The notes under the pieces are model-generated. The model made no database searches. It had not been told where the DNA came from and saw nothing but the letters and a program-made list of their open reading frames with translations. A stretch of 5,200 bases of DNA from a virus. Lineage: Duplodnaviria; Heunggongvirae; Uroviricota; Caudoviricetes. Every line of letters starts with the position of its first letter. The first letter of the stretch is position 1. Shown piece by piece: positions 128 to 5,200 of this stretch. The translations under genes and the position numbers were made by a program. Where the stretch lies: the IMG/VR virus record IMGVR_UViG_2693429524_000010; one strand, given 5' to 3'.

Positions 128-874
128 CCAGCGTCCGTTGCAACGAAGGCTACGCATCTTTCATTTATAAAGGCCCTACTAAGAGCCGCAGAGCGTGAAT
201 GGAAAATGCTGGATAAGGCACCAATTATTAAAGTGCCTCAACCAAAGAATAAACGGATCCGCTGGCTGGAGCCCCATGAAGCACAAAGGCTGATTGATGA
301 ATGTCCGGAGCCATTAAAGTCTGTTGTTGAATTTGCACTGGCAACAGGCTTAAGACGCTCGAACATCATCAACCTTGAATGGCAACAAATAGACATGCAG
401 CGCCGGGTGGCATGGATAAACCCGGAAGAGAGTAAATCAAACCGCGCAATTGGCGTTGCGCTGAATGATACTGCATGTCGCGTTTTGAAAAAACAAATCG
501 GGAATCATCACCGTTGGGTATTTGTGTACAAGGAAAGCTGTACCAAACCAGACGGAACGAAAGCGCCAACAGTAAGGAAGATGCGGTATGACGCAAACAC
601 AGCCTGGAAAGCGGCGCTGAGACGGGCTGGTATTGATGATTTCAGATTTCACGACTTGAGACACACCTGGGCAAGTTGGCTGGTTCAAGCCGGAGTCCCG
701 TTGTCAGTGTTACAGGAAATGGGAGGCTGGGAGTCTATCGAAATGGTTCGTCGATATGCTCACCTTGCACCTAATCACCTTACCGAACACGCACGGCAAA
801 TAGACTCGATCCTGAACCCATCGGTCCCAAATTTGTCCCAATCAAAAAATAAGGAAGGTACTAATGATGTGTAA
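128..874 (+). pseudogene. Phage-type tyrosine recombinase (integrase), 3' fragment; 5' part removed by the IS insertion at 126
   Basis: ORF track 206-874 contains the tyrosine-recombinase catalytic region ([51 protein letters not shown] with R, HxxR and Y). The same frame stays open with no stop back to position 128, immediately next to the IS terminus ([30 protein letters not shown]...). The protein lacks the N-terminal arm-binding and core-binding region that a complete integrase has. Confidence 0.85.
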
Positions 875-1105
875 CTTATTGATTTAAATGGTGCGATAAT
901 AGGAACAATACACATAGGCGATAAGCTTTGTTTTTGTTGCCTTTTTTATTGTTCATTTTTTATAGATACCCCCAAAAGTACCCCCATATCTTTTTCCGCC
1001 CCTGAAATTTGGTTGTTATTCATACAGCATATCAGGCGGTAACGCTCTCCCTTTAACCCACTTATTGTATGATAGTGCTATCCCACAATAAGGAATCAGC
1101 CAGCC

Positions 1106-1465
1106 ATGAGAATGACCAGCCGCAAAAAAGAGATACTTAGCTACTTTGAACCGGATAACCTCGAATGGGTGACTGGTGAGATTGGTGCGCCGCCGTTCGA
1201 TGTGTCGGGTGTGGCCTACCTGCTTCATGGCATGGTGTCGTTCGATAAGCGTCACCAGCTCGAATCAACCCGGCGCACACTGGAAAGCATGGTTGCTGGT
1301 GGACTGCTTGAGCGGGTGACAGTGTATGAATCGCGCCAGATACGGCGCGGCGGTGAGACTAACGCAACGGTCGTGCGTTACGGTTTACCCGGTCATTGTG
1401 CTGTTATGCGCGATACTGGCGGCGCTGATAACGCAATATCAGGTGAATACATGCGGGTCAGTTAA
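1106..1465 (+). CDS. Hypothetical protein (119 aa), function unknown
   Basis: ORF with AGGA about 10 nt upstream of the ATG. GC-rich codon composition similar to neighbouring genes. Its 3' end overlaps the convergent gene 1458-2000 by 8 bp. No family recognised. Confidence 0.45.
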   Translation: MRMTSRKKEILSYFEPDNLEWVTGEIGAPPFDVSGVAYLLHGMVSFDKRHQLESTRRTLESMVAGGLLERVTVYESRQIRRGGETNATVVRYGLPGHCAVMRDTGGADNAISGEYMRVS

Positions 1466-2000
1466 TAGCCTGCAATCTGTCGTTGATGCGGCTCAGGTCG
1501 TAAACCCGGCGTTCAATATCCAGCATCAGGAAATTGTGGATCTCGGCCTGCTCAGGATTATCAGACTCTCTGGCCTGTAATAGCAATTCATTGTAACCAT
1601 GCAAGCCGCCTGAGTTTTCCGCCGGGGTGGTGCCTTTCCCACGCAGGCAGCTAATGGGCTGATTACTCGTATCGTGTGTTTGCTTCTCCAGCACAATGAC
1701 GCAATCCCACCAGTCGCCAAAGTCATACGTGTAAACCAGCTTGTCACCCTCATTCTGGAGCGCCGCCCATAGTGGCGTGATTGCCGCGTTACCCATGCTT
1801 TCATCCTCACCCCATACGCGATACTCGCTACCTGGATCACCTTTACGCCCTTTCTCGAACATATACAGGTGTTCGTCATTCCAGCCAAAAGCTAACTGGA
1901 TCACGGCATGAAGTTTACTAAAGGGGATTTGCTCTGGAACCAGCACACGCCGCCATATAGGTGGTTTGCTGTCTCGGATGGTTATCTTTAGCTGGTACAT
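1458..2000 (-). CDS. Plasmid pRiA4b ORF-3-like family protein (180 aa)
   Basis: The N-terminus MYQLKITIRDSKPPIWRRVLVPEQIPFSKLHAVIQLAFGWNDEHLYMFE and the downstream YTYDFGDWWD motif match what I remember of the pRiA4b ORF-3-like family (Pfam PF07929). AGGA lies about 6 nt upstream of the start on the minus strand. Confidence 0.7.
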   Translation of the reverse strand: MYQLKITIRDSKPPIWRRVLVPEQIPFSKLHAVIQLAFGWNDEHLYMFEKGRKGDPGSEYRVWGEDESMGNAAITPLWAALQNEGDKLVYTYDFGDWWDCVIVLEKQTHDTSNQPISCLRGKGTTPAENSGGLHGYNELLLQARESDNPEQAEIHNFLMLDIERRVYDLSRINDRLQAIN

Positions 2001-2603: not shown

Positions 2604-2885
2604 CTACCTTTGCCTCTTGCCGCCATTTAACCGGAAGGCGTTACCGTTCGGTTGCGCTATCCCCATGCGGTGTTGCGTTTCGGTAACAGCTTTATGCAGG
2701 TCGCCAAATTCCTCAACCTTCACGGGCGGGCGCTTCACGTTCTCCAGACACGTTTCACGGCGGCGCTTTATCCATTCCCGATCATCGTCCTCGGTGCATA
2801 ACAGCATGACTTCCATCCATCGTGCGGCAGCTCTCCGGTATAGCCCTTTTGACTCCAGCTCTTCAGCTTTCCTGTCCCTTATCAT
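2604..2885 (-). CDS. PerC-family transcriptional activator (PerC/Pch-like, 93 aa)
   Basis: The N-terminus MIRDRKAEELESKGLYRRAAARWMEVM resembles the conserved start of PerC and the EHEC Pch (PerC homologue) proteins, and the size is typical for the family. GAGAGG lies about 5 nt upstream of the ATG on the minus strand. Confidence 0.75.
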   Translation of the reverse strand: MIRDRKAEELESKGLYRRAAARWMEVMLLCTEDDDREWIKRRRETCLENVKRPPVKVEEFGDLHKAVTETQHRMGIAQPNGNAFRLNGGKRQR

Positions 2886-2921
2886 TTCTGCCTCTCAGAT
2901 TATATAGATAAGCAAAAAGGT

Positions 2922-2948
2922 GTTGGTTCAGTTGGTTCAGTTGGTTCA
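2922..2948 (+). repeat. Three perfect tandem copies of the 9-mer GTTGGTTCA
   Basis: Read directly: GTTGGTTCA at 2922-2930, 2931-2939 and 2940-2948, head to tail with no spacer. Confidence 0.95.
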
Positions 2949-2991
2949 ATTTGTAAAGAGCGTTGTTTTTATTGTGTTTTTTCTAAAATAT

Positions 2992-3021
2992 TGAACCAAC
3001 ATCAACTCATTTTGAACCAAC
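2992..3021 (-). repeat. Two further copies of the same 9-mer in inverted orientation (TGAACCAAC), 12 bp apart
   Basis: TGAACCAAC at 2992-3000 and 3013-3021 is the reverse complement of GTTGGTTCA, giving five copies of the 9-mer within 100 bp. Confidence 0.9.
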
Positions 3022-3220
3022 AAAAAGTGTCCGTGAACTAACACTCTGTCAAATAGTCACTACATATATTAACGGTGAAGACTAAATCCGCCAGCAAATA
3101 GCTTATATAGCACCGCTTTATGCCGCAGTTATGCTGGAACAGTAATCATTTCACAGAACCGCCTAACTACTATATGGCACCTGCTAAAAAGCACATCAGC
3201 CTAGTCAGTTGATCGGTGCA

Positions 3221-3249
3221 TGGATATCCTAACAATTCAACTATATAAC
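3221..3249 (+). promoter_or_regulatory. Candidate sigma-70-like promoter facing the downstream two-gene cassette
   Basis: TGGATA (3221-3226), a 17-bp spacer, then TATAAC (3244-3249) inside a TATATAA stretch. This is a by-eye match to TTGACA-N17-TATAAT and is only weakly supported. Confidence 0.2.
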
Positions 3250-3318
3250 GTGATCTCCCATGTCGATCTACTGTCATGCAATGATTAACAAACACATAGA
3301 CACATCTGCTTGGCGCAT

Positions 3319-3328
3319 TGATTAATCA
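3319..3328. promoter_or_regulatory. Perfect 10-bp palindrome TGATTAATCA, with a related half-site TGATTAA at 3282-3288; possible operator
   Basis: Read directly. It lies 45 bp upstream of the ATG at 3373, in the AT-rich leader of the cassette. Confidence 0.3.
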
Positions 3329-3372
3329 CTGATCATCCATCAGGATATGCGAACCACCGTCACCAGGTTAGG

Positions 3373-4458
3373 ATGATTCTCAAAAGCCACCTGTATTCAA
3401 TGCCTTTGATGGGTTTCATCCATAGTTATTTTCTCGTGACTGACATGGAGATTTTGATTTCAAGGTGTGCAAAAACTATCGCAGAGTACAATGGAGCTCA
3501 AATGACTGTGGCACCAAAAGATCAAAGTTTGAAATCTGTAAGGGTGGGCTTTTACACAAGCTCTGAGAATATTCGCACTAGTAACAAGGGGTTAACCGCA
3601 GAGGCCTTTAAAAATCTGTATGATCGGTGTTCTAAAGACTTCAAGATGACCCACTATGCAGACTTTGGTGAAAGAGAACTTAAAATTCATTTTCTAGACA
3701 TCTCACCCGAGGATGGCTCCTACTTCGGATTCATGTCTCGAAGAAGAAAAAGCGCAACACTGGCATATATTACAGATAAAGAGTGGGTGGAAGAGAAAAT
3801 CCCTCTAGCCGGGGCAAAGACTCTTTCAGAACGTACATACTTTATTTATTATCCTCAGACAGACATTCTAGTATTGTCTTTAAATCATTTAGGTCCACGC
3901 CATAGTGACTTAGCCTTCCTTCTTTTCAACTCCAGTGATCGCGGAGTCCCTGTTTCTTTTGAAGCCATTTGGAAAGAAGAAAGCATCAAAGAACTACTCG
4001 AAACTGGATCCAATCTAAGAAGCTGCGAGATTTCTGTGGCCATCCCAAGAAACTTCAATGCCGCACAGTATCAACTCGATGGAATGTTCGCGAATCAGAT
4101 GATTGAGATGATCAGAGGCACCAGTTCAAGCCACCTGACTATTTCGTTACGCGGACATTCTCCATTAAAAAGAAAAGCAAAGGGATGGCTTGAGGATGAC
4201 GTTAAAAAAAGCCTTAAGGAGATGCTAGAAAAGTTCCCTGGTGGTGATGGTCGTTTAACTTTTGAGAAAGCAAATGTTGTTGCTCAGGGCGATAAAAAGA
4301 AGAAAAGTCTTGTAGACGAAGTTCTTACGGTAAAGAAGATGGTGCCTATCCAAGCAGATGGGTATCCGACCGATACTGACGTTAAAAATGCTATGCTACA
4401 AGCAAAGAATGACAACCTTAGGTATCTAACCCAGTACTATTTGGTTAGTCAAACGTAA
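3373..4458 (+). CDS. Hypothetical soluble protein (361 aa as the longest ORF); candidate sensor component of a two-gene module
   Basis: Long uninterrupted ORF in about 40% GC DNA with no predicted membrane segments beyond the doubtful first 24 residues. Three possible starts: 3373 (AGG then TAGG upstream), 3445 (no clear RBS) or 3502 (GGAG 6 nt upstream, which I favour). Its stop is 12 nt before the next start. No family recognised from sequence. Confidence 0.7.
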   Translation: MILKSHLYSMPLMGFIHSYFLVTDMEILISRCAKTIAEYNGAQMTVAPKDQSLKSVRVGFYTSSENIRTSNKGLTAEAFKNLYDRCSKDFKMTHYADFGERELKIHFLDISPEDGSYFGFMSRRRKSATLAYITDKEWVEEKIPLAGAKTLSERTYFIYYPQTDILVLSLNHLGPRHSDLAFLLFNSSDRGVPVSFEAIWKEESIKELLETGSNLRSCEISVAIPRNFNAAQYQLDGMFANQMIEMIRGTSSSHLTISLRGHSPLKRKAKGWLEDDVKKSLKEMLEKFPGGDGRLTFEKANVVAQGDKKKKSLVDEVLTVKKMVPIQADGYPTDTDVKNAMLQAKNDNLRYLTQYYLVSQT

Positions 4459-4470
4459 CAGGAATACATT

Positions 4471-4908
4471 ATGAGTTCTCGGAAATTGTTTGCTGCCAAG
4501 TCATTGTTTGCTCTAGCTATGGCTATTGCTGGTGCCCATTTTTTACACGACCTAGATCACAATGCTGTCATTTCGGCTGCTGGTGCTCTTTCAACTATTT
4601 CTGGAGTTCTCTTTGGTTTTGTTTTGGCATCAGTCACCATGCTAAGTAGCTTTGATAGTTCAAAGGGAATTGTAGGCGCTCTAAAAAGTAACGGAGTACT
4701 AAAAGGCATTATTGAGGGGCTTTTTGATACAGGAACTACGCTGATCACAGCCTGCCTATTAGCAATGATCTCGATGTTTGCCCCTGTTGTCAGCAATCTG
4801 CCTCTGGATTATTATGCCCTGCTACTCGCAGGGGCATATTTGATTATATCAATGATAACTTTTTTCTTTAACTGGAAATCTTTATCTAAAATAATAAGTT
4901 ACATATGA
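4471..4908 (+). CDS. Small integral membrane protein (145 aa) with four predicted transmembrane helices; candidate effector
   Basis: Four hydrophobic stretches of about 20 residues each, at roughly residues 6-25, 36-60, 87-107 and 112-133, with an amphipathic loop between helices 2 and 3. AGGA lies 7 nt upstream of the ATG, and the gene starts 12 nt after the upstream stop, suggesting co-transcription. Confidence 0.75.
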   Translation: MSSRKLFAAKSLFALAMAIAGAHFLHDLDHNAVISAAGALSTISGVLFGFVLASVTMLSSFDSSKGIVGALKSNGVLKGIIEGLFDTGTTLITACLLAMISMFAPVVSNLPLDYYALLLAGAYLIISMITFFFNWKSLSKIISYI

Positions 4909-5089: not shown

Positions 5090-5200
5090 TGAACCGCCCC
5101 GGGTTTCCTGGAGAGTGTTTTATCTGTGAACTCAGGCTGCCAGATCATCGTTTCCGATGGAAGCATAATAAGCTTTTTCTGCTTCTGCCGGAGGAGTATG
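5090..5200 (-). mobile_element. IS3-family insertion sequence (same type as at 1-126), orfB-proximal terminus (IRR); element continues rightward out of the window
   Basis: 5090-5134 reads TGAACCGCCCCGGGTTTCCTGGAGAGTGTTTTATCTGTGAACTCA. Its first 13 nt are identical to the inverted terminus at 114-126 and are followed by a similar TCCTGGAGA block, as expected for IRR versus IRL of one element. Confidence 0.75.
5132..5200 (-). CDS. IS3-family transposase OrfB, C-terminal 22 codons plus stop (partial, runs off the window)
   Basis: Reverse complement of 5135-5200 translates HTPPAEAEKAYYASIGNDDLAA, followed by a TGA stop at 5132-5134, just inside the terminal repeat. That placement is typical of IS3-family orfB; identity is inferred from position, not from a recognised motif. 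Confidence 0.55.
   Translation of the reverse strand, partial: HTPPAEAEKAYYASIGNDDLAA

Follow-up and report, generated by a model that had tools for sequence, protein, structure and literature searches.

A probable origin-type iteron module, mirrored by a second array, beside the PerC-family gene of an EcCIMP1-type phage-inducible chromosomal island

The window analysed here is a 5,200-nt stretch of viral DNA (IMG/VR record IMGVR_UViG_2693429524_000010) in which a cluster of short repeats, here called array A, lies between a PerC-family gene and a cassette of variable cargo genes. A comparison with complete Escherichia coli genomes shows the window to be the attR-side end of a phage-inducible chromosomal island (PICI) of the EcCIMP1 type. 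Array A is probably an iteron module of origin type for Pri-Rep, the putative replication initiator of such islands and, judging by its domains, a fused TOPRIM primase and DUF927 self-loading helicase. It would be the distal of two mirror-image origin-type copies, the proximal one, array B, occupying the canonical origin position; what array A does as a second copy is less certain than its identity as an iteron cluster. The features of the window are collected in Table 1.

A scan of the window for the 9-mer GTTGGTTCA finds five perfect copies and a sixth with one mismatch. The array begins with a tandem triple of 9-bp period, continues with an AT-rich spacer and ends with three inverted copies, each 21 bp from the next; the local GC minimum (0.33) coincides with the spacer, and the true repeat unit is a 10-mer, TGTTGGTTCA / TGAACCAACA. 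With up to one mismatch allowed, the window holds seven matches to GTTGGTTCA against 1.24 +/- 1.11 expected, a number that none of 200 shuffles reaches. An earlier note on this DNA had placed the five perfect copies, three tandem and two inverted, exactly and had rightly judged them beyond chance, overlooking the one-mismatch sixth copy, which is perfect in most other strains, including L002, L003, L006, L007 and L086. Its distances hold as well: array A ends 36 nt from the PerC start codon (2885), the tandem triple lying 37-63 bp upstream of that codon, and is separated from the first cargo open reading frame (ORF; 3373) by about 330-350 bp. The PerC gene is co-directional with the primase operon and directly downstream of array A in the island's direction of transcription. 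In each array examined, the first inverted iteron stands at offset 70. Rfam and tRNA scans gave no matches, and a CRISPR array, which has repeats of 24-48 bp and unique spacers of similar length, was rejected, in agreement with the earlier note, because the units are 9 bp long, abut or stand 12 bp apart, and occur in both orientations.

Table 1. Features of the 5,200-nt window, with positions counted from its first nucleotide.
Feature	Position	Strand	Basis or remark
Array A, putative distal origin-type iteron module	2915..3044	.	mirror-image paralog of array B
Tandem iterons x3 GTTGGTTCA, PerC-proximal set, equivalent to set IV of compact origins	2922..2948 (2922-2930, 2931-2939, 2940-2948)	+	9-bp period
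AT-rich spacer, 43 bp, candidate melting region	2949..2991	.	21% GC; same length in all A-/B-type arrays
Inverted iteron 4, perfect	2992..3000	-	word match
Inverted iteron 5, perfect, 21 bp after iteron 4	3013..3021	-	word match
Inverted iteron 6, degenerate (GTTAGTTCA), 21 bp after iteron 5	3034..3042	-	word match
Homology block of ~220 bp (PerC 5' end, leader, array)	2802..3022	.	96-98% between islands
PerC-family gene	2604..2885	-	Pfam PF06069, E = 3.7e-30
PRiA4_ORF3 protein	1458-2000	-	Pfam
PICI att core TCCTATTATC, end of island	895..904	-	same core flanks EcCIMP1 in MP1
Integrase C-terminal fragment	206-874		Pfam; outside island
Variable cargo: 361-aa ORF (3373-4458) and hydrophobic 145-aa ORF (4471-4908)	3373..4908	+	between arrays A and B in complete islands
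IS3-family termini, one element type (TGAACCGCCCCGG..TCCTGGAGA)	1-126 and about 5090-5200	same orientation	sequence

Array A has a twin. In every complete E. coli island, six copies of GTTGGTTCA in mirror orientation form array B, outside the window, with the stop codon of the primase-helicase gene 26 bp before it; array A is 7.3-8.4 kb away from this stop codon and array B. Alignment in three strains shows array A to be homologous to the reverse complement of array B over about 125 bp, the common parts being the leader AAAAGGT, the tandem triple, ATTTGTAAAG..TTGTTTT, the AT-rich stretch and the inverted triple; the sequence between iterons has drifted. The spacer measures 43 bp in all A- and B-type arrays of E. 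coli, Leclercia and Cedecea, and the inverted set is spaced 11/21 bp in the B type and 21/21 bp in the A type; the two persist as distinct paralogs across genera. EcCIMP1 itself (strain MP1) has six perfect iterons in each array, exactly mirrored in geometry, and its mapped att boundaries enclose both. Together, A and B bracket an accessory module of P22-like ejection-protein genes and variable cargo. Among 5426 complete E. coli genomes, 537 contain the array, at a median of two places per genome, and none of them annotates it.

Array B also differs between strains by a 10-bp indel or duplication (AACACGGTATTTTGAACCAAC, repeated in MP1; L086 11776-11896 compared with L001 19590-19700), with the result that the inverted set is phased at either 11/21 bp or 21/21 bp. 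A circular record of 12,152 bp, labelled a 'plasmid' and coming from an E. coli isolate of chicken (L087, NZ_CP148430.1), is an excised compact EcCIMP1-like island running from int to PerC, with both arrays 1.9 kb apart; it is possibly an episomal form caught in assembly, and it offers an indirect hint of Rep-dependent autonomous replication. A related array of 74% identity is found in a 16-kb circular Klebsiella capsid-forming PICI with a DUF927 Rep (L088, NZ_CP069874.1, 5490-5607). Another stands at 100970-101087 of a 106.5-kb Klebsiella phage record (P12620-1, PQ569648.1); among 50,697 phage records, a single one carries a related array, at 74% identity.

The protein most closely associated with the repeat is the island primase. 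Pfam recognises in it Zn_Ribbon_Prim, Toprim_3 and DUF927 domains, followed by an unannotated C-terminal region of about 270 aa, and residues 402-813 match PDB entry 8tch ('Pathogenicity island protein', E = 1.5e-11) and, more weakly, the related helicase 5dgk (E = 0.008). Among 77 loci with primase relatives, taken from one genome per species, an array of the same architecture starts 22-45 bp past the primase stop codon in about 55, spread over many genera of Enterobacterales. The repeat word varies by lineage, with GTTGGTTCA in the majority and GTTGTCTCA, GTCGGTTCA, ACGGGTTAY, GGTCGGGTA and others elsewhere, and elements with two clusters always have the same word in both. To relate this variation to the protein, 37 full-length primases were aligned and the ratio of between-class to within-class identity was calculated: iteron class is unrelated to residues 1-400 (ratio about 1.0), and its signal is concentrated in residues 881-918, within the last ~40 residues (ratio 0.61). 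There, primases of the GTTGGTTCA class have RG[YF]QRKS-PRI in 23 of 23 cases and those of the GTTGTCTCA class RGYQGRV--RE in 5 of 5, with near-identical flanks, the primase of L028 (GTCGGTTCA) has RGYQRKT-PRI, and the classes with a GGTCGG core share the motif KG[VI]T[RK]K[TS]-L. None of the other candidates, namely PerC, the integrase, the AlpA-like helix-turn-helix (HTH) protein and the antirepressor, separates the iteron classes: PerC is 92-94% identical in the GTTGTCTCA elements L014 and L018 and 52-54% identical in the GTTGGTTCA elements L006 and L007, and the integrase is 86-87% identical in both of these classes and 29% identical in another GTTGGTTCA element. These comparisons indicate that the repeat sequence tracks the primase-helicase, encoded outside the window, and not PerC or the integrase. 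The suggestion in the earlier note that the repeats are iterons or clustered binding sites was therefore right in kind, and the binders that it named (PerC, the integrase, a recombination directionality factor) were not, since the repeat tracks the replicase.

Islands in which the replicase has been exchanged provide a second line of evidence. Of the E. coli islands, 7 of 7 that have the DUF927 primase keep arrays A and B intact, whereas in 4 of 4 islands that have a near-identical PerC/o61/PRiA4 module (94-99.7% nucleotide identity) but another replicase, array A is absent or a 2-copy remnant (Fisher p = 0.003 for retention against replicase type, with islands that are not phylogenetically independent). 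The islands with a P4-family primase (L008, L090 and L091) have no GTTGGTTCA array anywhere and instead an iteron cluster of their own 3' of that primase. In L089, with a DUF5906 replicase, array A is reduced to two inverted copies by deletion of the tandem triple and the AT-rich spacer, and the replicase brings its own GGTGGTACAGGT-type iterons in two clusters. An array kept with its cognate primase and decayed after replicase replacement bears the signature of selection that depends on the cognate protein; across related islands, where the earlier note had proposed to look, the array is conserved and travels with the replicase.

The replacement iterons deserve description in their own right. 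The islands with the P4-family primase use the same att sites, and directly 3' of their primase stands a cluster of about 12 GTAGGGATA iterons, some in one orientation and some in the other (L008 15543-15794; also L090 and L091), and in L090 and L091 a gene for a single-stranded DNA-binding protein adjoins PerC. In L089 (E. coli E50), the GGTGGTACAGGT / ACCTGTACCA clusters, at 19440-19527 and 20530-20640, are about 1 kb apart and flank two small ORFs. Having iterons in paired clusters may therefore be common to satellites of this sort.

Selection on the iterons was assessed in seven distinct A-type arrays from E. coli, Leclercia and Cedecea. Only 1 of 54 iteron columns is variable, compared with 39 of 67 spacer columns (Fisher p = 2e-12), and the difference persists when the tandem triple that anchored the search is left out (1/27 versus 39/67, p = 4e-7); the sole variable iteron column is the window's own sixth copy. 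The pattern of variation in these alignments shows purifying selection on the iterons.

The relatives of these islands suggest how the split arrangement is built. In compact relatives (Enterobacter, Kosakonia, Lonsdalea and others), a single origin region of ~285 bp holds four iteron sets, with PerC directly after it. The PerC-proximal end of array A in E. coli has its counterpart in the distal tandem triple of these compact origins and the tail of that triple (ACACYWTTTYTGCTTAT), and the tail that follows the triple in array A (reverse complement ACACCTTTTTGCTTAT) recurs where the 285-bp origins of Enterobacter and Lonsdalea have their distal end. Several genera, E. coli among them, have the two clusters separated by 1-9 kb of accessory DNA; in E. 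coli, the distal cluster truly mirrors the proximal one, AT-rich spacer included. At 50 judgeable loci, the second cluster is adjacent in 22, distant in 14, both in 1 and missing in 13, which have the proximal array only. PerC is not always the neighbour of the distal array: in Lonsdalea, Chimaeribacter and Pantoea it comes after array B, and o61/PRiA4 comes after the distal array.

The arrays can be compared with several known replication systems. By definition, the origin of a PICI lies directly 3' of the gene for its replication initiator (Fillol-Salom et al. 2018, PMC6092414). In the pathogenicity islands of Staphylococcus aureus (SaPIs), six to twelve iterons lie just downstream of rep, opposed on either side of an AT-rich centre, and it is a winged-helix domain at the C-terminus of Rep that reads them, one hexamer being loaded per side (PMC9371898). 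Array A shares this plan, with two opposed sets of short iterons, three direct and three inverted, around an AT-rich region of 43 bp and 21% GC, and with an initiator homologous to the SaPI Rep self-loading helicase through the 8tch match. In both systems the iteron appears specific to the replicase type, a likeness that is correlative here and comes from the C-terminal motif and the replicase swaps. Array B stands at the defined origin position, and array A fits the anatomy only, being a mirror second copy 7.3-8.4 kb from rep, next to PerC, with accessory genes in between. Moreover, SaPI iterons are penta- or hexamers, whereas the iteron of EcCIMP1-type islands is a 9-10-mer. The PICI/SaPI replication origin described by Ubeda et al. 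reportedly also consists of iterons 3' of pri-rep.

The closest functional parallel is satellite P4, by analogy of working mode and not by family membership. Like the islands, P4 is a small satellite replicon with two clusters of one short repeat, in mixed orientations and several kb apart; in its annotation, crr (4291-4590) is directly 3' of alpha (stop 4636), and ori (9086-9809) lies beside the small regulator gene vis, 4.5 kb away. The P4 alpha protein contacts both clusters with its C-terminal domain, and replication requires crr in cis. The two primases have N-terminal Zn-ribbon and Toprim_3 domains in common, but the helicase core is D5_N/DUF5906/Pox_D5 in alpha and the SaPI-Rep-like DUF927 in the island primase, and there is no detectable similarity between their C-terminal domains. 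The repeat also differs (TGTTCACC in P4, GTTGGTTCA in the island), and the two island clusters are mirror copies of each other. Another parallel is found in plasmids: P1 incA and F incC are extra clusters of initiator sites that titrate Rep, pair with the origin and control copy number. They resemble array A as auxiliary clusters outside the minimal origin with genes in between. However, iteron plasmids have direct repeats of 17-22 bp, RepA/pi-type initiators and auxiliary clusters without an AT-rich melting region, whereas the distal cluster of the island retains a full origin-like anatomy.

The anatomy, the twin array, the association and covariation with the replicase and the purifying selection on the iterons are shown by the data; that Rep binds, that an origin fires or the DNA loops, and that gene regulation is affected are inferences. 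Once a helper phage has induced the island and it has excised, Pri-Rep hexamers would dock on the iterons on both sides of the spacer by means of a C-terminal DNA-reading domain and would melt the 43-bp AT-rich spacer. A winged helix at the C-terminus of Pri-Rep is suggested by the homology to SaPI Rep together with a sub-threshold hint of HTH_56 in Pfam (E = 0.1). Array A might then initiate replication as a second site, or it might bind Rep as an auxiliary site and assist array B in cis, in the way that P4 crr cooperates with P4 ori; alternatively, it might act as a copy-control cluster like P1 incA/F incC or as a homology anchor for cargo exchange. As to the last of these, islands that share the block at 2802-3022 have an unrelated or diverged PerC 3' part and cargo on either side, and the cargo homology between E. 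coli strains stops at 3022 or 3044, that is, at the outer array edge; the conserved arrays may serve as anchors for such exchange. Rep occupancy may also affect PerC expression, because the tandem triple is so close upstream of the PerC start codon. A more elaborate proposal, which we consider conceivable and rather doubtful, takes A and B as a functional pair, either through Rep looping (a P4-like ori/crr arrangement that arose independently in a SaPI-Rep-type replicon) or as two opposed origins. The space between them, with its ejection-protein genes and defence-like cargo, would be a replication-linked cassette slot, the arrays would be portable homology arms for cargo swaps between the islands of different species, and Rep occupancy would couple PerC and cargo expression to induction.

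Several points weigh against an origin-type role of array A. Its distance from rep takes it away from the defined PICI origin position, and the paper on EcCIMP1 mentions neither origin nor repeats (PMC11773190). The 13 relatives with the proximal array alone indicate that the distal cluster is not essential for the family. In addition, the spacer of the distal cluster is GC-rich, not AT-rich, in compact relatives, so the term 'second origin' may be apt for the E. coli-type mirror copy alone. Perhaps 5-6 independent switches underlie the covariation between repeat and primase, with the GTTGTCTCA class representing one clade. As for the putative DNA-reading domain, AlphaFold models of the primase and of the C-terminal domain have pLDDT values of 43.9 and 48.6, too low for assigning a fold; the domain has no match to PDB profiles at E <= 10, and hhalign against P4 alpha gave no match (probability 0.07%). 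Finally, the window itself has a mutated sixth iteron, insertion sequence (IS) elements on both sides of the segment, and neither the primase nor array B within it; this copy of array A may be an orphan in its genome.

Among other explanations, the one that survives best, although we hold it to be improbable, is that array A has no present role and is a relic: a part of the origin that was duplicated or rearranged and stayed behind when the accessory module inserted or when islands recombined with each other. The side-by-side clusters of compact relatives make the split look like an insertion into a larger origin, one array suffices in 13 of 50 relatives, the stop of inter-strain homology at the array edge is what a recombination scar would produce, and the window copy is both mutated in its sixth iteron and flanked by IS elements. 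A piece without a role would hardly be expected to keep 53 of 54 iteron columns unchanged next to spacers of which 39 of 67 columns vary, nor to persist in several genera as an A-type paralog of its own, with an unchanged 43-bp spacer and 21/21 phasing. Likewise, the array is intact in 7 of 7 islands with the cognate primase and decayed after replicase replacement.

The natural assumption that the repeats regulate their neighbour fares worse. According to this view, array A is an operator for PerC, the divergent cargo operon or both, bound by PerC, the 61-aa protein or an AlpA-type regulator; the array precedes the PerC start codon by 36 nt and the cargo by about 330 bp, which is a suitable position, and the 220-bp block of PerC 5' end and array travels as a unit between otherwise different islands. 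Nevertheless, iteron class is independent of PerC identity (compare L014/L018 with L006/L007), and the HTH protein and the antirepressor do not separate the classes either. An identical array adjoins the primase gene with no PerC nearby, and the gene order of Lonsdalea, Chimaeribacter and Pantoea puts PerC after array B and o61/PRiA4 after the distal array. Promoter and terminator scans of 2800-3450 found nothing, with no sigma-70-like site in the region. Most directly, the array is lost or reduced in L008, L089, L090 and L091, whose PerC module is near-identical and whose replicase is different. The earlier note had regarded absence of the array from otherwise identical loci as telling against a regulatory role; such absence is found, only where the replicase changed, and with it the idea that the array controls PerC fails. 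We thus regard the operator explanation as very unlikely. Least credible of all, and close to negligible, are integrase arm-type sites, excisionase sites or a helper-phage packaging site (pac/small terminase): short tandem and inverted repeats are typical of arm sites and some terminase-binding sites, and EcCIMP1 is without an identified packaging signal (PMC11773190), but the att core is 2 kb away from the array and integrase identity is independent of the iteron, which disposes of the arm-site and directionality-factor suggestions of the earlier note, the repeat co-varies with the primase C-terminus, and a related array in one of 50,697 phage records does not make a common helper-phage site.

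With array A probably an origin-type iteron module, the remainder of the window agrees with an EcCIMP1-type island. The order of genes in such islands is int, AlpA-like HTH, antirepressor, DUF4222, Ash/Icd, small ORFs and the TOPRIM/DUF927 primase-helicase, and then a small ORF, P22-like ejection-protein genes, variable cargo, PerC, o61, PRiA4_ORF3 and o119. Experiments in E. coli MP1 showed that EcCIMP1 excises and that the P22-like phage Kapi1 mobilises it; sequencing of the excision junction placed its boundaries at the att core TCCTATTATC, and its PerC homolog represses LEE1 (PMC11773190). As a member of the same element family with both arrays present, EcCIMP1 matches the window in att core, gene order, PerC (WP_000617443.1, annotated also in L001-L003), o61, PRiA4_ORF3 and terminal module; the window is unlike it in its cargo (361-aa and 145-aa ORFs), the mutated sixth iteron and the IS insertions. 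The island of L006 (strain 042) was considered as EcCIO42 of PMC6092414, and this was rejected, EcCIO42 being a different island at 1.83 Mb. Because the att core sits at 895-904, the integrase fragment at 206-874 is outside the PICI, and it belongs to an adjacent CP4-6-like remnant at the thrW/yagP site.

The terminal module (1106-2306), comprising a 119-aa ORF, the PRiA4_ORF3/MM3350-like gene and a 61-aa ORF, is found at the attR end across genera with 95-98% protein identity, whichever replicase type is present. The cargo and small ORFs (119-aa, 61-aa, 361-aa and 145-aa) have no Pfam matches, and PADLOC detected nothing in them; in other strains the cargo slot is filled by different genes (HTH, ImmA/IrrE and others), and the 361-aa/145-aa pair is a candidate accessory or defence cassette. 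The genes between the arrays (L001 15510-18964; L002 14640-19298) include homologs of P22-type ejection/injection proteins and a DUF2824 protein. These satellites carry the ejection homologs although the helper Kapi1 is itself P22-like, and the homologs diverge strongly among islands, for example with 35% identity for a 'DNA transfer' protein.

The two ends of the window are copies of one IS element, which bracket a 4.96-kb island fragment. In the left copy, orfA reads out of the window on the minus strand, and the right copy holds the transposase C-terminus (..AEKAYYASIGNDDLAA*). The element is presumably similar to IS629/IS1203. The IS-island junctions were not found in any complete E. coli genome, and at most 84% of the window is covered by any one of these genomes. 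The iteron complement begins with the six bases TGAACC of the IS terminus, probably by coincidence.

In summary, iterons of the PICI origin are known in kind, and it is their mirror-duplicated arrangement around an accessory module that is new and undescribed; a full-text literature search found no description of a duplicated or split PICI origin or of this iteron, the iteron drawings in Fig. 2a of PMC6092414 being outside a text search. Should the distal copy prove dispensable, what is left is an origin annotation of the routine kind. The array is present, unannotated and usually twice, in about 10% of complete E. coli genomes, and identifying it as a set of Rep iterons would give EcCIMP1-type satellites the origin that is missing from their published description, correcting at the same time the assumption that the repeats regulate the virulence-linked PerC gene. 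The mirror-duplicated origin around variable cargo raises the question of whether PICIs use two-site initiation of the ori/crr kind, and whether origin repeats also delimit a hotspot of cargo exchange. Moreover, the pairing of primase motif and repeat can be read as a testable recognition code, in which QRKSPRI goes with GGTT, QGRV-RE with TCTC and QRKT with GTCGG, and such a code could predict incompatibility or cross-replication between satellites.

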